Positions 10,714 to 30,216 are shown, numbered from the stretch's first letter. The stretch is 64,000 nucleotides of DNA from Candidatus Xenobia bacterium (GCA_045863235.1 BTUM01000009.1:32001-96000); one strand, 5' to 3'. The notes: generated by a model not told the origin, from the sequence alone. A program made the numbers and translations.

Positions 10714-12135
10714 ATGTCGATCCATACCAAAGCGGCTCTCAACACCGTCCTCTCCTTCTTTCTGGCCATGCTGTTGTTCGGCATCATCCTGGCCATCTCA
10801 AACAAGCACAACAAGACCTATGACGCCACCCAGAACAAGCGCCTGTCACTATCGGAGCAGTCGGCCAAGCTCGTTGGCGAGCTGAAGAAGCCGGTGCGGG
10901 TCGTGGCCTTCACCAACGAGCACGAGCGCAAGAACGTGGAACGGGTCCTGAAGAACTACCGCAACGCCAATCCGGCCATGTTCCACTTCGAGGTGCTCGA
11001 CCTGTTGAAGAACCCTGCCCGCGCCAAAGCCTACGACATCGTCTACAGCGGACAGGGCGTACTCGAGCTCTTGCCCGAGGGGGGAGCCAACGAGCCCTCC
11101 AAGCGTCAGGAGCGCCTCAACGACTTCGAAGAGCAAACCATCACCAACGCCCTGGTCAAGCTCTCCGACCGAGACTCGCTCAAGCTGGGCTTTCTGACAG
11201 GTCATGGAGAAGCCTCCATTACCGAGAACCAGCCCTTCGGCATCTCGGGTCTGAAGATGGCCCTGGAGCCGGAAGCTTACAAAGCCGAGGAGATCAACCT
11301 GGCCAAGCAGCCCCAGTTGCCCACCGACCTGGCCGCCCTGATCGTGGCCGGGCCCAAGGCTCCCCTGCTCGACGGCGAGCGCGACATCCTCAAGAAATAC
11401 ATCGACGACGGGGGGCGCCTGCTCTTCTGGTTCGACGCCCAGACCGACCGCAGCTACGCCGACTTCTTGCTGCAGTATGGCTTCGAGATCCCCGACGAGA
11501 TCATCCTTACCCCCGACCAGGTGGGCCGCATCACCCAGGACTCCGCGGCCGTGGTCGGCATGGTCTTCGACGCCGGGCATCCGGTGACCAAGGATCAAAA
11601 GGAGTTCATCCTCTCGCTGCTGTCTCACCCCATCAAGGCCGTCGCCGATCCCGCCAGGACCAACGGCTATACCGTCAAGCCCCTGGTCTCCTCGACCGAC
11701 ATGACGGTGGTGGTACCGGCCGCCGAGGTGCTGGGCAAGAAGAAGATGACCCCGCCCAGAGGGAAGGGCGCTTCCTTCCCGCTGGTGACCCTGGCCAGCA
11801 AGAGTCTCTCTGAGGCCCTGCCGAGCTCCTCCCCCTCCCCTTCGGCCAGCCCGTCTCCCTCCAGCAACAAGCGCGAGGCACGCCTGGCCGTGATGGGCGG
11901 CGAGGTCTTCACCAACCAGCTCCTGCGGGTGGTGGGCAACCGCGACTTCTCGGTCAACCTGATCAACTGGCTGGTCCAGGAAGAGAGCCGCATCACCATT
12001 CGCCCCGTGGAGGAAGAGTCCAAACCGCTCTTTCTGGCCCCGGGCCAGGTGCGCAACATCGTGGGCGTCCAGCTCCTGTTGATCCCGATGATCTTCCTGC
12101 TGCTGGGCATCCTGTCGGCCGTCAAGAGGCGCTGA
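10714..12135 (+). CDS. GldG-family ABC auxiliary protein
   Basis: N- and C-terminal TM helices; DATQNKRLSLSEQS, FLTGHGE, NRDFSVNLINWL. Confidence 0.88.
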   Translation: MSIHTKAALNTVLSFFLAMLLFGIILAISNKHNKTYDATQNKRLSLSEQSAKLVGELKKPVRVVAFTNEHERKNVERVLKNYRNANPAMFHFEVLDLLKNPARAKAYDIVYSGQGVLELLPEGGANEPSKRQERLNDFEEQTITNALVKLSDRDSLKLGFLTGHGEASITENQPFGISGLKMALEPEAYKAEEINLAKQPQLPTDLAALIVAGPKAPLLDGERDILKKYIDDGGRLLFWFDAQTDRSYADFLLQYGFEIPDEIILTPDQVGRITQDSAAVVGMVFDAGHPVTKDQKEFILSLLSHPIKAVADPARTNGYTVKPLVSSTDMTVVVPAAEVLGKKKMTPPRGKGASFPLVTLASKSLSEALPSSSPSPSASPSPSSNKREARLAVMGGEVFTNQLLRVVGNRDFSVNLINWLVQEESRITIRPVEEESKPLFLAPGQVRNIVGVQLLLIPMIFLLLGILSAVKRR

Positions 12136-19764: not shown

Positions 19765-20276
19765 ACATTGCAGCGGTCGCCTCCACCTCCGCCCCCACCC
19801 GGCCGCCCCAGGCCGTGGCCGACCAGCTCGAGAGCCTCGATCTCACTCTGCGCCACAGCATCGAGCGTTACGAAGGCTCGATTCCCGAGCTGGAGACGAC
19901 GGCCAGCCAGGGCCGCCAGCGGGCTGGCCTCTGGCTGGGCGGAGCCGGATTTGCGCTGGCTCTGGGGGCGGCCGGTGGCCCGCTGGGGATGCTGGCCTCG
20001 GGCCTGGTGGTGGTGCCGGCCGCGGCCTTCGGGCTGCTCTCACTGGCCCGCTCCTCGGCGGCCCGCGAGCGGCTCGAGATCGCCCGTGAGGCAAGCCAGA
20101 CCTTCTCCGAGCTGCACGCCCAGGTGGGCAAGCTGCGCCAGGAGGCCGACGAGGTGGTGCGCCGCCACCAGGTGGAGTCTCTGGCGCAGGCCTTCGAGCA
20201 GCAGCAGAAAGCCGTCGAGGAAAGAGAAAGTCACATTCGGATCGGAGGCGTACGCCTCAAACGGAGGGAGCCATGA
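19761..20276 (+). CDS. Hypothetical protein with a Gly/Ala-rich hydrophobic hairpin, coiled coil and C-terminal IRIGGVRLKRR tail
   Basis: AAGGAG RBS; 171 aa; ATGA overlap with the next gene. Confidence 0.8.
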   Translation: MNIAAVASTSAPTRPPQAVADQLESLDLTLRHSIERYEGSIPELETTASQGRQRAGLWLGGAGFALALGAAGGPLGMLASGLVVVPAAAFGLLSLARSSAARERLEIAREASQTFSELHAQVGKLRQEADEVVRRHQVESLAQAFEQQQKAVEERESHIRIGGVRLKRREP

Positions 20277-21301
20277 TCAACTCGATTACACCCCGTGTCG
20301 TCGTTCTGGGCGGCGGCTACGCCGGCGTGGAGCTGGTGGAATCGCTGGAAGACGCCCCGGTGGACGTGGTGCTGGTGGACCAGAAGCCCGAGCACACCAA
20401 GAAGACCAAGCTCTGGAAGATGGCCGTGGGCCGTGAGTCGGACGCCGTCGAGCCGCTCTCCAAGGTGGCCCGCAAGGCGGGCGCTGAGCTGCGCCTGGGC
20501 CAGGTTCAGGCCATTGACACCGAGTCGCGCCAGGTGAAGCTGGAAGGCGGCCCTACCCTGAGCTACGACTACCTGGTGGTGGCTCTGGGCTCGCGTCCCG
20601 CCACCCCGGAAGGGGCCGAGCACGTGCTCACGATCGACCAGCCCGAGGACGCCCAGCGCATTCGCGAGACCGTCCGCGCTCGGGCGCTGGAGGCCATGCA
20701 GACCGGCCAGAACCTGCCCATCGTGGTGGTGGGCGGCGGCGCCACCGGCATCGAGCTAGCCGGGGTGGCCCACGAGGTGGTTCGCCAGGTCAGCCCCCAG
20801 CTACTGGAGCGGCTGGAGCTGACCCTGGTGCACTCGCAGAGCCGCATCCTGAACGGTCAGAGCGACGAGCTCGCGGCCCGAACCACGGCTGCCCTGGCCG
20901 ACCTGGGCGTGCGCCTGCAACTCGGGCAGCGCGTGGCCGCCGTGCGCGAGGGCCAGGTCGAGCTGGCCTCGGGCCAGATCCTGCCCTCGGTCTGCACCCT
21001 CTGGGCCACCGGTACCCGCGCTCCCGAGCTTCTGGCCAGCCTGGGCCCCACCGACCGTGCGGGCCGCCTGGAGGTCAGCAAGCACCTCAACCTGCCCGAG
21101 CACCCCGAGGTCTTCATCATCGGCGACGCCGCCCTGGCGCGCTGCGCCGGCCAGAGCGTGCCGCCCAACAAGCGCGCCGCCAAGCAAGAAGCAGAGCAGA
21201 CCGCCCAGAACCTGCGCAACGCGGTGGCCGGCAAACCACTGGAGCCGTTCTCCTACCGCGACAACAAGGACTGGCACCACATCGGGCCGGTGGAGCTGTG
21301 A
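20273..21301 (+). CDS. NAD(P)/FAD-dependent oxidoreductase (NDH-2/AIF-like, short)
   Basis: VVVLGGGYAG, YDYLVVALGS, VVVGGGATGIELAG, VFIIGD. Confidence 0.88.
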   Translation: MINSITPRVVVLGGGYAGVELVESLEDAPVDVVLVDQKPEHTKKTKLWKMAVGRESDAVEPLSKVARKAGAELRLGQVQAIDTESRQVKLEGGPTLSYDYLVVALGSRPATPEGAEHVLTIDQPEDAQRIRETVRARALEAMQTGQNLPIVVVGGGATGIELAGVAHEVVRQVSPQLLERLELTLVHSQSRILNGQSDELAARTTAALADLGVRLQLGQRVAAVREGQVELASGQILPSVCTLWATGTRAPELLASLGPTDRAGRLEVSKHLNLPEHPEVFIIGDAALARCAGQSVPPNKRAAKQEAEQTAQNLRNAVAGKPLEPFSYRDNKDWHHIGPVEL

Positions 21302-21308
21302 AACGCAA

Positions 21309-21429
21309 GAATCGTCGCTCTGACCCGAAGAACTTACATGGGGTCTTCGATGGCGCCCTGACGGGGTTTGTGGGGCGGCTGGTGGCTGAAATGATCACCG
21401 TTGGATCACCGTTTCCGGGATCGCGTGGT
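21309..21429. repeat. att-like repeat copy 1 (core plus TGATCACC arm repeats)
   Basis: GAATCGTCGCTC..AGAACTTACATGGGG (core 21329-21341); TGATCACCGTTGGATCACC at 21392-21410. Confidence 0.65.
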
Positions 21430-21716
21430 TGACCATTCTAGATTATCGAGCCTTGGCTTGAGCGCCAAGAGAACGGGCCCCCTCTAGCAAGCGAGTTGCC
21501 GGCCAGGGAGGCGCGTACGGGCTCTTGGCCAACTGCGCCAGAGAAACTTTGCGAAACCTGCTGCGCTCTGCGCCTCGGGGAGGCACTCGGCCATGAACTC
21601 ACGTGATAGCTCCGGATGGCCAGTGTAGAGCAGGTCGAGAAGCGTACGATCCCCTAACGCTCGGCGGTCTCCCTCGTAGCTCATACCAGCACCGTATTCA
21701 AGAGTGTCTCCTTCGG

Positions 21717-22310
21717 CTACGGTTGGTTCTGAATGTACTTTAATCCGTGCTCAAAGCTATGGATCAGCTTGCAACCAAGCGCCTGTAACTGCGTCTCCAC
21801 GTTTGGAACCCCGAAGTCCTTGCTGTTCCGGTTGATGTGACAGCTCTGTGCAACCTTATTGTTTTGCAGATCTGTCAGGATACTGGCCAGCACAATGGCG
21901 TCGCCCGGGGAGAGGTAACTCTCGTGGATCCTGGCGTCCTGCAGAGTTCCCAATTCCAGCGGTAAGATGCGCGCCGCTTTGAGCAGCCGATCCCTACTTT
22001 GATCAAACTGAGTTTCCGCGTCCTGGATACTCCTGGTTAGCAAGTCGACAGAATGGTCGAGTGCCCGAAGACCCTCCGAGTATGAATCATTCCTGGCGAG
22101 TTCGGACCGCTGGCGCCTCAGATCCAGTTGTAGGTCTTGCCGCTTGATCTTTAGCCGAACCAAGGTGTTGAAGGGCTCGACCAGAGAAAAAGCTGGAATG
22201 GCCAGTTCTATCGATCGACCCGGGAGTGCCAGAATGTCTTGGCAGGCCTGAGACTGTTCCTGCCCGAGCACAAGTTCCAGCACAAAATTCGTCTCGCAGT
22301 AAACTCTCAC
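21717..22310 (-). CDS. PIN-domain protein
   Basis: RVYCETNFVLEL...DAIVLASI...NRNSKDF. Confidence 0.8.
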   Translation of the reverse strand: MRVYCETNFVLELVLGQEQSQACQDILALPGRSIELAIPAFSLVEPFNTLVRLKIKRQDLQLDLRRQRSELARNDSYSEGLRALDHSVDLLTRSIQDAETQFDQSRDRLLKAARILPLELGTLQDARIHESYLSPGDAIVLASILTDLQNNKVAQSCHINRNSKDFGVPNVETQLQALGCKLIHSFEHGLKYIQNQP

Positions 22311-22741
22311 CGAGATTGGAGAACGCTTCCGCCATGAATGGCCGAAGGAAGTCCCGACTCATGCAATTCGCCTTGTTCCGTGGGCGAGTCGACTAAGTCC
22401 TGAAGCCATTGGCCCACGATGAGCTCATAGGCAAGGGGGTGCACTTCCGAGGGCTTAATTTGCGCGCGCTCGAAGTAGGGAGCAAGAATTGGACTAGCAT
22501 TCACCACAAAGTCCGGCTCGGTCGAACGACTCTCTGGCCTCCAGATGAAAAACTGTTCGGGAGTTGCGAGTAAGAAGTAAGAGCCCTTTACGGCCCACCC
22601 AGACTTCAGCAAATTGTCTCGAAAGCGGCTGGCCCAGGCCGAAGAGGCTCCCTTCAAGCTCTTCGCTTCCACAATCAGAGCCTGGTTTCCCAAGGCATCC
22701 AGGAGGAAAAAATCAAACTTATCGTCTCTGTCGGATCGCAT
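22307..22741 (-). CDS. Hypothetical protein coupled to the PIN gene (PD-(D/E)XK-like motif)
   Basis: FDFFLLD...LIVEAK; GTGA overlap with the PIN gene; TAGAAT upstream. Confidence 0.7.
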   Translation of the reverse strand: MRSDRDDKFDFFLLDALGNQALIVEAKSLKGASSAWASRFRDNLLKSGWAVKGSYFLLATPEQFFIWRPESRSTEPDFVVNASPILAPYFERAQIKPSEVHPLAYELIVGQWLQDLVDSPTEQGELHESGLPSAIHGGSVLQSR

Positions 22742-22862
22742 CTTACTTTGCATTCTACACCCGGACGCTCGTAGAGGGAAGGATTCGGGTGCTTGGCAGC
22801 AATGCTCGGTTTGGCCACAATGTTCCGTTCAGCGCAGTGCATCCCGGCACGCCGACGCGGAC

Positions 22863-22966
22863 GAACGTCGCTCCCACGCAGAGAACCTACGCGGGAACCG
22901 CAGAATTCGGCTCAGTTCTGGTTCCGGGCACTGAGAGGAGGTCACGTTGATCACCGTTTGATCACC
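22863..22966. repeat. att-like repeat copy 2
   Basis: GAACGTCGCTCCCACGCAGAGAACCTACGCGGGA (imperfect inverted repeat TCCCACGCAG/CTACGCGGGA); TGATCACCGTTTGATCACC at 22948-22966. Confidence 0.65.
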
Positions 22967-22969
22967 TAA

Positions 22970-23344
22970 CCTACTGATTGGGTAACGTATGATACGACCA
23001 CCAAATTCGAGCCTGACATGTTCGTCGCGCGGGTGGAGGGGGACTCTATGGAGCCACTCATCCCCAATGGCGCCTACTGCCTCTTCCGTTATATTCGAGA
23101 CATGCCTCGGGAAGGCAGGCCCGCTCTCGTCTGGCACGACGGGCTCAGCGATCCTCACACAGGCGGAAAGTATACCCTCAAGTATTTCACGGTTGAACCC
23201 CCAGTTGCGTGGCGCAAGCCTGGTCGGGTCGTGTTGAAGCCTGCAAACAAGAATTACGAGCCGATTATTCTTCCATTGGAGGGAGAAGGAGTATTCCGTG
23301 TAATTGCAGAGTTTCTGGAAGTCCTGAAGGGCGCAGGCACCTAA
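22970..23344 (+). pseudogene. 5'-truncated S24 (LexA-like) peptidase-domain gene fragment
   Basis: DWV...MFVARVEGDSMEPLIPNGAYCLF...YTLK...LKPANKNYEPI; the frame opens right after the TGATCACC repeat (TAA at 22967); no HTH. Confidence 0.65.
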
Positions 23345-23383
23345 TTAGGCGCACTGGTGACTTAACCATATCAATCCGCGACA

Positions 23384-25672
23384 TCATTCTTGGAACTGCT
23401 CTGCGAGCGCCCAAAAGGCATCAATCCTCACGTCGCCCACGTCCCCCGTCTGGGCCTGAAGGAATCTCTCCTTGTCAACCTGGAACCGCACGAAGTTCTT
23501 GGCTTTCCCGCTGGTTTGTCGATGGACGTCCCGCAATACACCCGAGTCGATGCCAGCCTTAACAACTTCTTCGGCTAGGTCGCCAAAATCTGATTCGAGA
23601 TCTTCGACTGCTACATCAGAGGTTTTATTTGACTGCCGGACGAGCCTTGTAACGCACTTGATGAGCTTTGGCTGTACCTGCCGAACAGTTTCCCGTGCTG
23701 CAACTATGTCCTCAGTAAAATCTGTGGTCGCTCCGCGCGCCTGAATAGCCTCTAGTATCTGTACTGGGTTGAACAGTGTTTCCGTGTTCTGCTCACTTTC
23801 TCCACCTCGCGAATTGTCCAGCACTTCCAGTCGCCTAAATTCACAGTCCAGGAACCGTGATGAAATAACTGTAGATGAATCGACTTTAAAGCCATCGAAG
23901 AGGCACCTGATAAACTCGCATCCAATGAACTGCGTTCCACCAAGGTCTACGTTGACAAACTTGCAGCCGTGAAATGTCACCCTATCATACTTGTTCTTCA
24001 TTAGGCACTCATCAGCGAAGTTCAGGTCATGCAAGGAGATACCGTCCTCGCGCGAGTCATTTAGAAGGCCCGCGCATACTGCAGACGCGTTCGTGGACGC
24101 CGTGTAATCGTGATGGCTTTTGCCGATGGTTGATAAGACCTTAGTTACATTTCTTAGGCTGCCTCCTTCGCGCCGAAAAAACCAAACAGTCCAGTCAGTT
24201 AACTCTGGACTCAACTCGCGTTCGGATAGTAGAATCGAGAGAGAGTCGGTATCTTCGGACATCATTATTACGGCGAGCCGAGCGCCTAAGAAATACGCAA
24301 AAAAACTCTCATGCAGGAATCCAAAGGTAGCTGTAGCCCCCTCCTTTGGGACAAGGGCAGCGTGCGTAGGCACCTTCTCAATAATCTGGGTCTTAACTGC
24401 TGCTTCGAGCTGGAGGTGCATCAATCCGAGTTCTGCGGCTATTCGGAGTTCGTCGGCTGCAAGCCGAAATGCTCCGGATCGCCACATTTCCTCGGCAACT
24501 GCACCTAGCATTGCGATGTGCCCCGCGGTATCAAGTAAGGGCTTTCGCGTCTGGGTCTCTATCCATTTTTCCCATTCCTCTCGTTCGAGCAAAATGCGGA
24601 AAACGTAGTCGCTGCGCTCGAGGTGACTACCGCCAACGTCTATGTTCTTGAATCGTTCCTTCTCAACTACCCAGAGTTTGGCTAGACGTGTGAGGAAGAT
24701 CGGGTGGAAAATCAGTTGCTGGTCATTCTCGAAGGTGTTCAGGAGTTCACGCAGGTCCCGCTCGGCGTCCTCGGACCCCAGCGACTTAAATACCTCGATA
24801 GCCTGGTTGACCTTCCATCCCAAGAGTTGAATGCCGACGGTCGAATACGCGCCACGTTTGGGTTGGAGATGTGTCCTGATACTTGCCGAAACTTGGTAGA
24901 GGTCGAAGAAGCCTTCTCGAGCCGACAAAATCACGGACCCTGCAGTATCCATTTGGTCAACCAGTTCGGTTATTTTGATGAATGCGTCCCGACTGCCCAC
25001 CCGTGCCACCAACTCGTCGAATCCATCGAGCGCCAGGACTATCCAGCCCCATTTCATGCAGGCCACAACCTCCCGTTGCGTCAGAGGAAAGTCGTAGGTG
25101 TTGTTCAATGAGCCTGCTACAGCATCATCAATATTTCCCACATAGCGACCCAACAGGTCGACAGGAATCAAGATTGGAGTTGGATGCTCTTGGGCGCGAT
25201 ACTCATTGGCACACTGAATAGCCAGCCACTCCAGGAGGGCGGTCTTGCCTTGTCCAGCCGGCGCCATTAGTTGGATAAGTTGAGTATTAGCTACTGGAGG
25301 TGCCGCGATAATGCTACGAAGCCTGTTAAGAACACTATCTTCTTCAGTGCCACTTCCTGTTGCATATGCGCGAAAACGGGCATGGCCATCGATAAATTTC
25401 GCCGGGCGCTTCTCCCAGTTTCGCTGAAGAACGCGCGATATCTGTTGCGCCAACCTCGGCAAGCCGAGCACCTCGGACTGGACGTATTGCGTCACAGGAA
25501 CGACTTTCTCACCATCCACCACTCCAAAGCCGATCCCCGCGATCTGTGTCAACTCAAAGAGAGTCTCGCTTCCGTGGCGGAAAAGGCTCACGACGGAGCC
25601 CTCTCGATGGTAGTTTGCCGGGTCGGAGATCAGTTCTTGAAATCTCAGGTCTATATCTTCAATGCGAAGCAC
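23384..25672 (-). CDS. NACHT/STAND NTPase with a pentapeptide-like repeat region
   Basis: APAGQGKT Walker A, VLALDGFDE Walker B, VILSAR, FGFLHESFFAYFLG winged-helix motif, FHGCKF..FIGCEFIRCLF repeats. Confidence 0.88.
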   Translation of the reverse strand: MLRIEDIDLRFQELISDPANYHREGSVVSLFRHGSETLFELTQIAGIGFGVVDGEKVVPVTQYVQSEVLGLPRLAQQISRVLQRNWEKRPAKFIDGHARFRAYATGSGTEEDSVLNRLRSIIAAPPVANTQLIQLMAPAGQGKTALLEWLAIQCANEYRAQEHPTPILIPVDLLGRYVGNIDDAVAGSLNNTYDFPLTQREVVACMKWGWIVLALDGFDELVARVGSRDAFIKITELVDQMDTAGSVILSAREGFFDLYQVSASIRTHLQPKRGAYSTVGIQLLGWKVNQAIEVFKSLGSEDAERDLRELLNTFENDQQLIFHPIFLTRLAKLWVVEKERFKNIDVGGSHLERSDYVFRILLEREEWEKWIETQTRKPLLDTAGHIAMLGAVAEEMWRSGAFRLAADELRIAAELGLMHLQLEAAVKTQIIEKVPTHAALVPKEGATATFGFLHESFFAYFLGARLAVIMMSEDTDSLSILLSERELSPELTDWTVWFFRREGGSLRNVTKVLSTIGKSHHDYTASTNASAVCAGLLNDSREDGISLHDLNFADECLMKNKYDRVTFHGCKFVNVDLGGTQFIGCEFIRCLFDGFKVDSSTVISSRFLDCEFRRLEVLDNSRGGESEQNTETLFNPVQILEAIQARGATTDFTEDIVAARETVRQVQPKLIKCVTRLVRQSNKTSDVAVEDLESDFGDLAEEVVKAGIDSGVLRDVHRQTSGKAKNFVRFQVDKERFLQAQTGDVGDVRIDAFWALAEQFQE

Positions 25673-26375
25673 ACTGGCCTCCTATCGAGGTTATTAGGAC
25701 CCCACGATTCTCAAGTGAAGTGTCGCAGTAATACGTTTTGGTGTGGGACCGAATAACAGACAAATTTGCGCCGTTGTGGATACTGGCGGCCAGCAATGCG
25801 GGTGAAAAGTCTACGTCATCGGAAACTAGGCAGATACACGAATCGGAAGAGGATGAGGCTAACGAAAGGAGGTCAGTTGCGATGTGGACGTCAACCTGCT
25901 TCTGCTCGTTTCTTTCAAAGTAATCGATATATCGATGTGCGCAGCTTGCTTCTGTGCAAGCGCGACTGTTTCCCATCCATCGCTGAACGTCCTTTAACTG
26001 ACAGCGCGCATTCTGGCAGTCGAGTTTACTAGAGGCACGCGGTTTGGAGCGCCTGATGGAGACGGTATGAGTAATGTGAGGGTCGGCGTGCGAGGCAAGG
26101 ATTAGACGGTCGGCAAACTCAAAGTGAACCCGGACCAGGAGACCGTAAGCTTTCAGCAACGCGGGGCACTGTTGTTGATAATAATTGGCCGCCGCATAGC
26201 GGGCCTCCGTGGCGAACTGGTCTCGAAACCAGCCACCATAAGCGCGGAAAACCACGTTAGCTATTCGGCCGCTTCGCGTCAGGAGGGTTTCGCGGCAGCT
26301 GTGCACCCACGATGTGATTACTTCGGCCGGCGGGACGTCCGAGAAATTGTCGTGGTCGACAAGAATATAGTTCAC
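25659..26375 (-). CDS. NYN-domain (PIN-fold) ribonuclease-like protein
   Basis: ILVDHDN, EQKQVDVHIATD, LVSDDVDFSPAL; Cys-rich insert; overlaps the NACHT start. Confidence 0.82.
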   Translation of the reverse strand: MNYILVDHDNFSDVPPAEVITSWVHSCRETLLTRSGRIANVVFRAYGGWFRDQFATEARYAAANYYQQQCPALLKAYGLLVRVHFEFADRLILASHADPHITHTVSIRRSKPRASSKLDCQNARCQLKDVQRWMGNSRACTEASCAHRYIDYFERNEQKQVDVHIATDLLSLASSSSDSCICLVSDDVDFSPALLAASIHNGANLSVIRSHTKTYYCDTSLENRGVLITSIGGQCASH

Positions 26376-26459
26376 ATCAGGTCCTGCGCCACTCGATGCT
26401 CAAGTCCCTTTGAGTCTGAAGCGACCGCCAACAGAGCCACCTCACACCCGACCAGCATT

Positions 26460-26699
26460 TGATCACTTTTTGATCACCGGACTCAAAATCACGCCCGATC
26501 ACCACGCCCTCCCAGAAACACCAAAACTCACCAAAACCAGCGCCACCTCTAATCTCCAGCACACCCAACATAATGCCAGATCACCCAAGATCACGCCCCT
26601 GCTTATCTACCCGGGGAACCTACATGGGGCCTCTTCGATGGCGCCGCCGACTGGGTTTGCGGGGCGGGTGGGGGCACCGTTTCCGAGCCGGCATGGCTG
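26460..26699. repeat. att-like repeat copy 3
   Basis: TGATCACTTTTTGATCACC (26460-26478) and further GATCAC copies; core GGAACCTACATGGGG at 26615 followed by TCTTCGATGGCGCC..GGGTTTG.GGGGCGG..CACCGTTTCCG as in copy 1. Confidence 0.65.
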
Positions 26700-26726
26700 C
26701 GCGATCTGCGGAGCGATCTCGAGACC

Positions 26727-27209
26727 TTACTCTTGTCCGGGGTCCAGGATGGTCAGGTCGGGAAAGTACTTCCCATAATATCCTCGATCACGCGTCACAA
26801 GCTGATCACTTTGCACGCTGGCGTGACCCCCGACCAGAAAATCAGTAATCAGGTGCTGCCTCCAAGGAATTGCCCTCTGACAGGACGAGCACGTAATCCT
26901 CTGGCCATGCCCGCATTGAGGGCAGGCTGGATGATCCGGACGTCGGCGCCGATACTCCCGCCAGGCAAGCCCTGCTCGGCTAAGCCCCTCGCGGGAGGTC
27001 GGAACCACCTGAATGCCGGTATCCATCAGGAACGTGTCCAGGGATCCCTGATTCGGGAAATGCGCCGCAAGCTCGGAATACACAACCTCACCCATGATCA
27101 GGGTGCCGTTGCGAAGGCTATCGTCGAGCGCATTCTGAGAAGCGAGTTGAAAGGGAGAGCCTGGCACCAGAACATCCAAAATTACATTGGTATCTAGCGC
27201 GGAGGTCAT
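26727..27209 (-). CDS. vapC: VapC-like PIN toxin with a zinc-ribbon insert
   Basis: ALDTNVILD, VYSEL, CPQC..CSSC, DFLVGGHA, LVTRD. Confidence 0.88.
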   Translation of the reverse strand: MTSALDTNVILDVLVPGSPFQLASQNALDDSLRNGTLIMGEVVYSELAAHFPNQGSLDTFLMDTGIQVVPTSREGLSRAGLAWREYRRRRPDHPACPQCGHGQRITCSSCQRAIPWRQHLITDFLVGGHASVQSDQLVTRDRGYYGKYFPDLTILDPGQE

Positions 27210-27442
27210 GGGTCCGGTTCGCCTCGGAGTTCGTCCAGAAGGGAATCCGGATCTTGTCCGGCCAGTGCGCGCAAGTAGCCCAGGTAAGGAGCAAACGGCG
27301 AACTCTCAACTCGCTTGCAGACGCGGATGATATGGTCCTCTTCCAGGAACTCAACCTGATCGCCAGGGTGGAGATCAAGTCGCTCCCGAATCTCCTTTGG
27401 GATCGTCACCTGACCCTTGATTGTCATCCGACTTGCGGGCAT
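27206..27442 (-). CDS. vapB: AbrB/MazE-family antitoxin
   Basis: MTIKGQVTIPKEIRERLDLHPGDQVEF; ATGA overlap with the toxin gene. Confidence 0.9.
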   Translation of the reverse strand: MPASRMTIKGQVTIPKEIRERLDLHPGDQVEFLEEDHIIRVCKRVESSPFAPYLGYLRALAGQDPDSLLDELRGEPDP

Positions 27443-27550
27443 CTGGCCTCCAAGTATTACTAGTTGACACTATCGTAATACCTGGTTTCGAAGTTTGTCA
27501 ACGCCGGGCCAAGGGCTTCGAGCGTGCAAGCGCTTCGGCGTCCCCATCAT

Positions 27551-27575
27551 TCCTGCGCGGAGAACCAACATGGAC
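27551..27575. repeat. att-like core copy 4 (right island boundary)
   Basis: TCCTGCGCGG AGAACCAACATGGA; host-like GC content resumes after it. Confidence 0.45.
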
Positions 27576-27638
27576 TGCCCCATTGGCTTTGGCACCGGGG
27601 GCAGGGCGCTCTGGGAACGTCCTCGCTACCGGACTCGG

Positions 27639-28052
27639 TCAGCGCCGCGAGGGCAGAGGGACGTAAATCTCCCGGCACCTGAGGTGCCACAGCTCGACAC
27701 GGCAGAGGTCCACCCGCCGCTGAACCCGCTCCAGGGCCTCCTCCCAGCTCTGGCGCCAGAGGGAGATCCCCAGCGCAGCCGCGGAGCAGCCTGAGATGAC
27801 CCAGAGGGTGACCGGCCACAGGCCAGCCACGCCGGCGGCCAGGGCCAGGAGGCAGGCCATCCTCAGCTGGTCGAGCCAGCGCGAGGCGCGCTGCAGGCGG
27901 GCCTGGAGGCGGGCTTTGCGGCGCTCGAGCACGGCCTCGCTGGCCAGCACCTCGCGGGTGCGCTCGGCCAGGAAACGCAGGTCCGAAGTGGACTCGACCA
28001 GGCCTCCGTTCACGATCCTCAACTCCTCCATCACCCACTCCTCTCTGGTCAT
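27639..28052 (-). CDS. Hypothetical membrane protein (coiled coil plus hydrophobic hairpin)
   Basis: 137 aa ORF; TACTCT 7 nt upstream of the ATG. Confidence 0.65.
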   Translation of the reverse strand: MTREEWVMEELRIVNGGLVESTSDLRFLAERTREVLASEAVLERRKARLQARLQRASRWLDQLRMACLLALAAGVAGLWPVTLWVISGCSAAALGISLWRQSWEEALERVQRRVDLCRVELWHLRCREIYVPLPSRR

Positions 28053-28083
28053 CACGATCAGAGTAAGCTGTCTGGCTTGGAGA

Positions 28084-30216
28084 CTACTGAGAGGATCCTT
28101 GGGAAATCCTTGACTGGGCGGTCAGCTCCTGAAACAGCCGGGTGGTCTCGGCGCTGGGAGCCAGCTGCAGCTCCTCGGCCAGGGCTTCCTGGCAGGCCCA
28201 GTAGAGGCGGGCCACCCGCTCGGGCTGGCCGGCCCGGCCCCAGAGGCGCATCAGCTCCTGATAGGCCCCCTGGTGACAGCGGTCCACCGAGAGAAGCTGC
28301 TCGGCCAGCGAGAGCAGGCGGTCGTCCTTGCCCGCGGCCTCGGCCAGCAAGCCCTCCAGGGCCCGCACGGCCAGTTCGCGCAGGCGGCGGCGGTAGGGGC
28401 GGATCCAGTCTTCCTGGAGGTTCTCCAGCAGATCGCCCCGGTACAGGTCCAGCGCCTGCTGGAGGCGACCGGCCTTGACCTCGCGCTCGAAGTCGAGGAA
28501 GTCGACCCGGTGGGACAGATCGGTGTTGAAGCGGCAACGCCCGCGCCGGTGCTGCACCAGATCCCCTTCGCCCAGGGCCCGGCGGATGTAGGTCAGGGCC
28601 GAGTACAGGTTGGCCTGGGCGCGGTCCCCCTCCAACTCCGACCAGAAGAGATCGGTCAGGCGCTCGTCCGGCACCTCGGTTCCGCCGTGCAGCAGCAGCA
28701 CCAGGAAGAGGGCCCGGCTTTTGGAGGTCTTCCAATCCTGCTCCTTGATCTCGCGGCCCTGAAAGCGGATGCGCAGTGGGCCCAGGCCCTCCACCTCCAG
28801 GGCGGCGGGTGGCTCGGCCGGCGGACAGAGGCGCAGCCGGGCCAGCATCTCGGCGGCCCGGGGCGAGCCGGACGCTCCCAGCACCCGCTGGGTCAGCCAG
28901 CGCTCGCGAGAAAGGGCCCACTCCAGCCCCTCGGCTTTGTCCAACAGCTCCTGGACCGCCGAGGGCGCTTGCTTGGAGCCTGCCAGCTGGTAGCCCCAGG
29001 CCCGCAGCAGGCGCACCCGCACGGCTCCCCGGGCCGCTCCCTCATAAAGCCGGGTGGCCTGCTCCAGGTCGGCCTCGCCCGAAGCGACCTCCCCGACCGC
29101 CAGCCGGGCCGTGCCCAGCAGAGCCAGGATATCAGCCCGGGCCAGCCGCGAGCCCACCCTCTCCAGGGCCAGACGGGCCTGCTCGATGGCTCCCGCGGCA
29201 TCGCCGCAGGCCAGCCTGGCCGTGCCGAGGCAGAGCCGGGCCAGGGCGGACGGGTTGGGGATCGCCTCCAGCGTCTGGCGAGCCAGCTCGGGCTGGCCCG
29301 CGGCCAGGTAGGTCAGGGCAAGCCCCGCGGCCCCGCTGGGAGGCTCCCCGGCCGGGCTCTCCACGGTCCCCCCGCTGAGGGCCTGCTCGAGGCGCTCGCG
29401 CAACTCGGGCGGAGCTTCCAGCATCTGGAGACACTCCTGACGCGACAGTCCCAGGGAGGCGTCGGCGGGGTGGGCCAGGGCGTCGTAGCGAGCCACGGCC
29501 GCCAGGATCGGCTCGGCCTCGGTAAGCTGCAGGGCTCGCTCGGCCAGCTTCAAGGTGGAGCGATGCTCCCATCCCTGACGGTCGGCCGGGTCCTGCGAAA
29601 GCAGCTCTCGGCAACGCTCCAGACCCTGCAGCAAGGTGGCTCCGCCGGCCACGGCCGTGAGCAGGGCGGCCCAGGAGAGCGCCTCCAGCTCCTCGCCCTG
29701 AAGGCCGGAGAGGCTGCCCACCCGGCGGGCCAACTCGCGACGACGCAGAGCCGCCTCGCGTTCGGGGGCCAGGGAAAGCAGGCTCCACTCCCACAGGGCC
29801 AGGCTGTCGCGGTAGCTGCGCTCCTGGCTGGCCCGCCACCAGGCCTGGCGGTCGAGCCACTCCAGGGCGCGCCCCACCGCTTTCAAGAAGGTCTCCTCGT
29901 CGAAGGGCTTGGTGAGGAAGTCGTCGACTTGCAGGCGGAAGGCCTCCACCGGGGTCTCGAAGTCGGCAAAGCCGGTGATCACCACGGCCCGGGTCTCGGG
30001 GGCGGTCTGGCGCATCTGGCGCAGCATGGAGATGCCGCTCATGCCGGGCATGCGCACATCGGTGATGACCAGGTCGAAGGCGCAATCGCTGGCCGCCTCC
30101 AGGGCCCGAGCGGCCGACTCGGCGGCCGTGACCTGGTACCCCTCCTCCTCGAGCAGCAGGCTCAAGCTGCCGCGCAACAGGTCATCATCTTCTACCAGCA
30201 GGATACGTCGGGCCAC
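28084..30216 (-). CDS. Response regulator with TPR-like region and C-terminal SARP/BTAD activator domain
   Basis: ILLVEDD, DLVITDVRMPG, KPF; LGPLRI...LFW...ALDLYRGDLL...LMRLW...LAEELQLAPS. Confidence 0.88.
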   Translation of the reverse strand: MARRILLVEDDDLLRGSLSLLLEEEGYQVTAAESAARALEAASDCAFDLVITDVRMPGMSGISMLRQMRQTAPETRAVVITGFADFETPVEAFRLQVDDFLTKPFDEETFLKAVGRALEWLDRQAWWRASQERSYRDSLALWEWSLLSLAPEREAALRRRELARRVGSLSGLQGEELEALSWAALLTAVAGGATLLQGLERCRELLSQDPADRQGWEHRSTLKLAERALQLTEAEPILAAVARYDALAHPADASLGLSRQECLQMLEAPPELRERLEQALSGGTVESPAGEPPSGAAGLALTYLAAGQPELARQTLEAIPNPSALARLCLGTARLACGDAAGAIEQARLALERVGSRLARADILALLGTARLAVGEVASGEADLEQATRLYEGAARGAVRVRLLRAWGYQLAGSKQAPSAVQELLDKAEGLEWALSRERWLTQRVLGASGSPRAAEMLARLRLCPPAEPPAALEVEGLGPLRIRFQGREIKEQDWKTSKSRALFLVLLLHGGTEVPDERLTDLFWSELEGDRAQANLYSALTYIRRALGEGDLVQHRRGRCRFNTDLSHRVDFLDFEREVKAGRLQQALDLYRGDLLENLQEDWIRPYRRRLRELAVRALEGLLAEAAGKDDRLLSLAEQLLSVDRCHQGAYQELMRLWGRAGQPERVARLYWACQEALAEELQLAPSAETTRLFQELTAQSRISQGSSQ

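Follow-up and report, generated by a model that had tools for sequence, protein, structure and literature searches.

How do toxin-antitoxin and other defence-like genes come to lie side by side in a stretch of chromosome that carries no recombinase gene of its own? This question is raised by a window of 64,000 nucleotides (nt) from a Candidatus Xenobia bacterium (GCA_045863235.1, BTUM01000009.1:32001-96000; G000:C9:32001-96000 in our nomenclature), which is part of a 132-kb contig, C9, in a genome of 8.36 Mb, 166 contigs and 65.8% guanine plus cytosine (GC). Inside the window, a low-GC island of about 6.3 kb, located between the stop codon of an oxidoreductase gene and a conserved gene of 138 amino acids (aa) (27639-28055, minus strand), holds four related sites alternating with three groups of genes, here called packets A, B and C. 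An initial annotation, made from the sequence alone, had proposed that these sites belong to a tyrosine recombinase and that the island grew by repeated accretion of cassettes. We now consider it probable that a lambda-type tyrosine integrase moves a genus-specific family of integrative elements whose attachment (att) sites include these four, and that the island is an integrase-less accretion array of three packets.

Four related sites divide the island

The island is compositionally foreign, with a GC content of 0.547 (21301-27615) versus 0.684 and 0.715 in its flanks, and it reads in the order head remnant, core 1, packet A, core 2, packet B, core 3, packet C, core 4 and flank. The four related cores that had been placed at 21329, 22882, 26615 and 27561 were recovered, as were the shared flanking sequences described around them. 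A degenerate core 13-mer matched 4 times in the 64-kb window versus a mean of 0.04 in 100 dinucleotide shuffles, none of which reached 4; the pattern was drawn from the same four sites, so this test is partly circular. In addition, the doublet TGATCACCGTTKGATCACC matched 3 times at up to 3 mismatches (21392, 22948 and 26460) versus 0.01 expected. All four sites are direct repeats on the plus strand.

Two models describe the sites: an iterated nhmmer profile of the repeat unit, used over G000 with a threshold of E ≤ 0.01, and R1, a sequence-only covariance model (CM) of the whole unit, built from alignment A2 with sites 1, 2 and 3 in the training set and site 4 left out, and run over the window with filters off. 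Site 1 (21300-21438; nhmmer E 1.8e-31; CM 94 bits; alignment A2) consists of the 3' half of a head-module hairpin (21301-21328), the core GAAGAACTTACATGG (21327-21341) and a complete P' arm with a GATCACC doublet (21392-21410) and a terminal GGTTGACCATT (21427-21437). Its head is devoid of the promoter-like part and the 5' hairpin arm. Public contigs from runs X1, X2, X3 and X6 were also examined, the uncovered parts in X2, X3 and X6 carrying no evidential weight; an X3 contig has 122 additional nt between 21301 and 21300, exactly at the missing part of the head, suggesting a complete head in another strain. Site 2 (22863-22977; nhmmer E 1e-21; CM 67 bits) is a type II unit: after the left segment CGTCGCTCCCACGCAGAGAAC come the core AGAGAACCTACGCGG (22880-22894) and a P' arm, also of type II, with a GATCACC doublet (22948-22966) at its end. 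The subtype of site 2 is also present at C18:65649, C60:48224, C21:63055, G002:C29 and G003:C86.

Site 3 (26585-26707; nhmmer E 2.4e-19; CM 68 bits; alignment A2) has the core GGGGAACCTACATGG (26613-26627) and a P' arm missing about 22 nt, including the GATCACC doublet. It is preceded, at the right end of packet B, by a P arm of type 2 (26450-26612, plus strand) that contains five GATCAC (26461, 26472, 26497, 26579 and 26589) and one ATCAC (26488). The same P arm stands at the far end of an integrase-bearing island (C13:102093-102270) and at C78:36370, and it is 83-89% identical at seven places in three related genomes (G001, G003 and G004). Site 4 (27543-27613; CM 15 bits, E about 9e-4) is a degenerate terminal site with the left segment CATCATTCCTGCGCGGAGAAC and the core GGAGAACCAACATGG (27559-27573), after which flank DNA follows without a P' arm. 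It is too short for the nhmmer profile; in the R1 scan of the window it ranks fourth even though it was outside the training set, followed by the GATCAC doublet at 26458 (10 bits), all remaining matches having E ≥ 0.3. At the corresponding place in G003 (C86), beside a vapB homologue, stands a complete type II unit and then a gene-less mini-unit.

The sites belong to a genus-specific repeat unit

The window sites are members of a larger family. The unit is about 140-180 nt long and gave 21 nhmmer matches in G000, 3 of them in the window island and the rest on C18 (4), C21 (3), C13 (2), C60 (2), C5 (2), C53, C14, C20, C78 and C57. The genus was represented by five genomes, G000 and its relatives G001 to G004, and R1 matched in all five (16, 13, 9, 6 and 16 matches); it gave 0 matches in 36 genomes, some of them incomplete, from nine further genera within the same order or class. 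By these searches the unit family is genus-specific. The scan of the genome and its relatives suggested by the initial annotation thus extended the motif well outside the window.

A full unit starts with a P-side segment, or head, at whose end lies a 9-bp inverted repeat, and continues with the core CCTACATGG(GG) and a P' arm with two GATCACC that reads TCTTCGATGGCGCCCCGACTGGGTTTGCGGGGCGG ... TGATCACCGTTTGATCACC ... GGTTGAGCCAT; in the autonomous elements, the 3' end of an integrase gene lies directly beyond this arm. The heptamer GATCACC occurs 2877 times in the 8.36 Mb, counting both strands. At some sites the head is replaced by an alternative left arm of about 170 nt with five GATCAC and one ATCAC, and the type II subtype, which includes window site 2, has AGAGAACCTACGCGRGG and its own P' arm, still ending in the GATCACC doublet. 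The initial annotation had noted that tyrosine recombinase sites combine a core with direct-repeat arm sites, and the GATCACC arms, together with the adjacent integrase described below, support the assignment to this family of enzymes.

The head reads GGGGAAAA-NN-TCACCGAC, then 17-19 nt, a TAnnnT hexamer (present by reading in 17 of 19 heads) and 8-9 nt, and leads into a hairpin-forming inverted repeat, GGTTCCCCG ... CGGGGAACC, with an interior of 33-45 nt and a second short stem. In the aligned hairpin, 93% of cells pair; its covariation score was reached by 28 of 500 shuffles and is not significant. A consensus scan found no sigma-70 promoter in the head, and a promoter function for the TAnnnT and nnGAC motifs is no more than suggested by their sequence. 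We also considered the head as a coding C-terminus, as its left block shows period-three variation (G/W-E-N/K-x-T-D/E), and rejected this because stops vary, the differences in loop length are not multiples of three and the genes upstream are read in other frames. A reverse-strand terminator was predicted in a single copy, and by eye the remaining copies do not share it. The head may be the target in the chromosome, a part of the mobile DNA, or a small gene that resembles a hairpin RNA and has a promoter of its own.

Units are arranged in arrays at several loci of G000 (C9, C18, C21, C60, C5 and C53), and the copies inside one array share their direct orientation. The cargo of the other arrays is small and similar to that of the window island, and includes PIN, Unstab_antitox, an AbiEii/DUF6036 nucleotidyltransferase, three Uma2 and an AAA_14 ATPase. 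Two arrays contain gene-less mini-units of about 250 bp consisting of arms only (L002 10650-10920 on C18 and L005 9611-9888 on C60), in the order type II core, P' arm, a common spacer of about 130 nt, hairpin-type arm and type I core; similar mini-units are present in G003:C86 and G004:C63. In the first C18 unit (L002 8263-8285), both arm repeats show the identical change, GCTCACC twice for GATCACC, and this looks like co-adaptation to a different arm-binding specificity, rather than random decay.

A tyrosine integrase gene adjoins the unit in three genomes

On contig C13, the gene (L006 8513-9751) for a tyrosine integrase of 412 aa (Phage_integrase, E 1e-20; phrog_1 integrase, E 3e-67) reads towards a full unit and ends 6 nt from its GGTTGAGCCAT end. 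In G001 and G002, orthologues with 88% identity are placed in the same way against a full unit, and the three integrase loci are different ones, because the DNA to the left of the head differs in all three. Taking the 30 loci fetched around units, a tyrosine integrase gene, which the initial annotation had advised looking for beside the motif, adjoins the unit at 3 of them, with one weak partial case in addition and a gap of 6-12 nt to the outer arm; the C13 integrase is the sole one found beside a unit of this family in G000. This enzyme is not of the integron type; the nearest solved chains to it are 3nkh and 6en0 (Tn1549 integrase), and Pfam recognises in it SAM_5 (residues 114-182) and the catalytic domain.

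The recombinase had been supposed to be encoded outside the island, and this is supported: a tblastn search with 14 of the integrase open reading frames (ORFs) of the genome gave no integrase similarity in 21300-27700 (best E 0.23), and none of the 17 PF00589 matches of the genome is on contig C9. The putative cognate enzyme is the one on C13.

The integrase on C13 belongs to an island of 19.6 kb (L011, G000:C13:101500-121499) that has the unit and the integrase gene at one end and a GATCAC-rich arm with a core at the other. Its cargo comprises an efflux trio of the resistance-nodulation-division type (ACR_tran, HlyD and OEP), a chromate transporter, a split ChrB, EamA, DUF1529 and several proteins without a family. 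In relatives, the flanks of this island are 0-190 nt apart (about 35 nt in G004 and about 190 nt in G001), with a slightly larger deletion in G003. The C13 island shows the classic layout of an integrated element, with attL, int, cargo and attR.

Other integrase genes of G000 show related features. At the start of contig C38 (G000:C38:1-280), a 465-aa integrase, 35% identical to that of C13, lies beside a variant unit whose arm repeats are TTTTCCC in place of GATCACC, and the resemblance suggests a sister att/integrase pair. Moreover, GGTT(G/A)AGCCATT (in one case GAGCCATT) follows the stop codons of four integrase genes, on C13, C38 (two) and C1, two of which adjoin apparent tRNA gene ends by eye; this motif may be a shared outermost arm or a regulatory site of a wider integrase family.

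Homology between strains changes at the core

Among the 20 head-bearing sites in the loci fetched, only two G000/G001 pairs share the upstream gene and can be compared as orthologous arrays. In the first (G000 C18 versus G001:C144), identity is 96% (151/157) up to the end of the core, 69% over the next 100 columns and 27% beyond. The second (G000 C21 versus G001:C35) gives 87%, 47% and 29% over the same segments, the switch starting in the hairpin loop. In both of these alignments, identity falls right at the core. The initial annotation had suggested looking for gain or loss of cassettes exactly at the cores, and this was seen in these two arrays of the family; at the window locus itself such a change was not seen.

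These breakpoints also bear on the idea that the unit is a dispersed repeat of the kind of miniature inverted-repeat transposable elements (MITEs) or repetitive extragenic palindromic (REP) sequences, spread by a transposase and unconnected to the neighbouring genes. The unit is indeed multi-copy, short, intergenic and genus-specific, and the genome has a separate MITE-like repeat of 109 nt in 48 copies. However, neither terminal inverted repeats nor target duplications were seen around the units, the copies within an array are all in direct orientation, the geometry with the tyrosine integrase gene is fixed, and homology between strains breaks at the core and not at the unit ends. We therefore give this explanation almost no credence.

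The 109-nt repeat was noticed downstream of a 339-aa ORF (L006 11005-11113; G000:C13:122820-122928). Its 48 copies were counted in G000 by blastn at E ≤ 1e-10; G001 has dozens at 90-95% identity, whereas G002 and G003 have only a handful and none is listed for G004. By eye, a unit of about 120 nt is repeated head to tail up to the end of the C13 contig (L006, about 11640-12001).

The packets of the window differ in their distribution. Packet C is present in four of the five genus genomes, with 78-82% DNA identity in G001, G003 and G004, where it stands in other contexts, and for packets A and B no DNA homologue was found in G001 to G004. Judged by these comparisons, the packets appear to have separate histories, which fits serial accretion and lends support to the growth of the island by successive site-specific steps. 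It is of interest here that the island could instead have been gained in one piece as a composite, the repeats being promoter- or operator-like regulatory or structural blocks and not recombination sites. Such a role would agree with the position of sites 2, 3 and 4, each upstream of a minus-strand operon, and with the conserved TAnnnT hexamer at a fixed distance in the head. We regard it as highly improbable: in three genomes an integrase gene has its 3' end directly beside the unit, the unit also delimits the 19.6-kb island absent from relatives and stands next to unrelated cargo at many loci, and three relatives have packet C but neither A nor B.

A proposed history of the array

Taking the sites as att sites of a lambda-type integrase, exchange would occur at the core CCTACATGG, and the array would have been built as one element after another integrated at the core of a site already present, in an order that can be proposed from the present arrangement. 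Packets A, B and C would then resemble cis-mobilizable elements (CIMEs), most likely as cut-down remnants of larger elements, and their toxin-antitoxin or nuclease/NTPase cargo probably aids their persistence. Signs of decay are found in the truncated repressor by site 2, the deleted arm at site 3, the 5'-truncated head at site 1 and an integrase stub of 39 aa with 77% identity in G004 (C63:111-227); no intermediate forms of packets A to C were found. Present-day excision of packets, or their capture in trans, may also be conceived.

The window locus varies in every genus genome examined. In G002, both flanks are conserved at 92-94%, with different genes and one type II unit between them. In G003 (L026 2585-3065 versus window 20309-27648), 480 unrelated nt replace the oxidoreductase gene and the island; this state is a deletion, because the first 14 nt of the oxidoreductase gene remain. 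A clean empty site at this locus was sought in all four relatives and rejected, the G003 deletion being larger than the island, the key 100 nt of G002 reading N, G001 differing from the start of the oxidoreductase gene onwards and the G004 homologues being rearranged at 70% identity. Several loose ends in the public contigs, together with a join from 26675 to 22948, turned out to be cross-matches from paralogous units.

Several observations weigh against the proposal that the four sites are att sites of an accretion array. At the window locus, no gain or loss bounded by cores was seen among the relatives: the G003 deletion also removes the oxidoreductase gene, and G002 has N for 100 nt just beyond the oxidoreductase stop. 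For the window island, neither an excision product nor a circle junction nor a core-bounded empty site was seen, and the public contigs (X1, X2, X3 and X6) contain no core-to-core join across a packet; the sole alternative join, in X1 from 22970 to 26608, has 21 letters on its short side and falls at an arm end, not at a core. Site 4 is weak, at 15 bits. In the integrase, no arm-binding domain is recognised by Pfam in the N-terminus (residues 1-110). Moreover, G004, a genome 97% complete with 16 units, has no intact integrase orthologue (best 33-36%), and many units may therefore be fossils. Finally, the head is absent from the matching sites of relatives at both loci where this could be checked, namely the C13 locus (G001, G003 and G004) and the DUF2332 locus (G004), and a head also lies inside an array in G001:C144.

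Some of the same data could be accommodated by an active, integron-like cassette system, in which the integrase-less packets and the mini-units of about 250 bp would be the normal mobile form and a single integrase would act on them in trans. In such a system, the lambda-type integrase would replace IntI and would itself ride on a cargo island, one per genome, while the docking points would be mobile heads, each formed by a promoter-like block and a hairpin of 55 nt, with half of the core as its 3' arm; such heads would serve as landing pads at many loci, seeding arrays behind ordinary genes. Each genome contains 6-16 units and at most one intact cognate integrase, arrays are found at C9, C18, C21, C60, C5 and C53, and array content turns over between genomes with flanks 90-94% identical. 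In addition, many integrase-less units retain perfect arm doublets, one has GCTCACC twice, and the mini-units consist of arms only. Against this, the junction of an excised packet was not seen in the public contigs, several units are visibly decayed, G004 retains its 16 units without an integrase, the orientation of the cargo is mixed among arrays, and the cargo operons appear to have their own upstream regions. The truncated repressor and the integrase stub, moreover, indicate reduction from larger elements. Weighing these points, we think that such a system is unlikely, and we keep the reading of an array of att sites left by successive integrations.

Comparison with known systems

The best fit among known systems is tandem accretion with integrase-less CIMEs. 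As set out in part of one published account (PMC5704250), CIMEs keep att sites without genes for integration or transfer and lie in tandem with related elements, with shared att sites between them; the same portion describes how CIME arrays arise when incoming elements integrate into a resident att site, with ICESt1 and ICESt3 of Streptococcus thermophilus as examples. Similarly, the window packets show no integrase similarity (best E 0.23) or transfer genes, and they are bounded by the unit family that abuts an integrase gene in G000, G001 and G002. There are also differences. Here the cognate integrase is on another contig and no integrase-bearing element is adjacent, the anchor is a module of about 110 nt, present in many copies and made up of a promoter-like part with a hairpin, instead of a tRNA gene or the 3' end of a gene, the packets are tiny (0.25-3.7 kb) and arrays occupy several loci per genome.

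With lambda-type systems, Tn916 and Tn1549, the units share a core flanked by arms with several direct-repeat sites and an integrase gene beside one arm. In contrast to them, the units have new core and arm sequences, the left half of the core recurs as a 9-bp inverted repeat about 35 nt upstream, and the arm-binding domain is unrecognisable by Pfam.

The island had also been likened in its logic to integrons and pdif modules, and a dedicated cassette system of that kind was not supported, given the absence of an integron integrase, the arm-bearing sites of 140-180 nt and the features of decay. The likeness to integrons, or to clusters of attC sites lacking integron integrases (CALIN), is the row of small packets, the related recombination sites with an imperfect hairpin, and a recombinase outside the array. 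An attC site has the order R''-L''...L'-R' with a GTTRRRY box and no arm-type repeats, whereas the units carry arm-type repeats and are without conserved R''/R' boxes: inspection of alignment A2 revealed no conserved GTTRRRY/RYYYAAC boxes in them, with the inverted repeat GGTTCCCCG/CGGGGAACC instead. The whole G000 genome has no integron integrase, the best TIGR02249 match reaching 72.4 bits against a cut-off of 265, and the array has no attI or Pc platform, its packets being operons with their own upstream regions. In pdif/Xer modules, 28-bp XerC-spacer-XerD dyads flank the modules, usually in alternating orientation; by eye, no dyad surrounds the core of the four sites, which are direct and span 140-180 nt with their arms.

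Finally, site-specific islands stacked at tRNA or tmRNA genes are known from the ssrA islands of Dehalococcoides, as described in PMC3146451. The stacking, with a copy of the 3' part of the target at each joint, is similar; the target-like segment of our family, however, is no tRNA, tmRNA or Rfam family, and most units are without an integrase. ARAGORN found 0 tRNA or tmRNA genes in the window, and Rfam returned nothing in window 20500-28500 (E ≤ 1) or at five other unit loci (E ≤ 0.1). What is unusual here are the multi-copy head module, which is not a tRNA, and the gene-less mini-units of about 250 bp.

Contents of the packets and flanking genes

The genes between the sites had been described as three two-gene units, all on the minus strand: a PIN pair, NYN with NACHT, and VapBC. 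The second unit and the PIN toxin with its antitoxin in the third stand, while a PIN pair was not demonstrated in packet A, which adds a 66-aa ORF, and packet B adds a fragment on the plus strand. Packet A (21439-22862, minus strand; GC 0.558) contains this 66-aa ORF (21484-21684), a PIN-domain protein of 197 aa identified by Pfam (21717-22310) and a 148-aa protein of no known family (22307-22753), whose gene overlaps the PIN gene by 4 nt; all three are on the minus strand. Upstream of this operon, at 22795-22829, are two 17-nt direct repeats (GGCAGCAATGCTCGGTT / GGCCACAATGTTCCGTT), 18 nt apart, possibly an operator.

Packet B (22978-26457, mostly minus strand; GC 0.53) encodes, by profile matches, a 108-aa C-terminal fragment of an S24 peptidase/repressor on the plus strand (23018-23344) and, on the minus strand, a NACHT-like NTPase with pentapeptide repeats (23384-25672) and an NYN-domain protein (25659-26375). 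The S24 ORF covers just profile positions 254-330 of 400 of the CI/LexA-type repressor family. Packet C (26708-27542, minus strand; GC 0.572) comprises a PIN toxin (26727-27209) and an AbrB/MazE-type antitoxin (27206-27442), both identified by Pfam on the minus strand, and the upstream region. The Pfam content of the island is thus limited to PIN, S24, NACHT, NYN and MazE. A role of these genes in defence is plausible and no more than that, because PADLOC gave a single weak match among 9 proteins (HEC-09, E 1.8e-4, the NYN protein).

The left flank is the gene for a pyridine nucleotide-disulphide oxidoreductase of 342 aa (20273-21301, plus strand; ORF with Pyr_redox_2, E 9e-41), which is 94% identical in G002 and deleted in G003 and whose stop codon runs directly into the truncated head module of site 1. 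On the right, homology with G002 and G003 restarts at about 27615-27648, and the minus-strand gene that follows, the 138-aa gene of no known family introduced above, is conserved in G002 (92%) and G003 (86-87%).

Significance

To our knowledge, almost no mobile-element genetics exists for this phylum. The unit family offers a concrete, testable recombination system whose core and arm repeats are defined and for which a candidate integrase and natural substrates are available. In addition, the window locus illustrates how toxin-antitoxin and defence-like genes pile up at one hotspot without a local recombinase. If packets of this kind are not mobilised in trans, the locus would be an ordinary graveyard of decayed integrative elements; if they are, it would represent a second, integron-independent route to modular cassette arrays.

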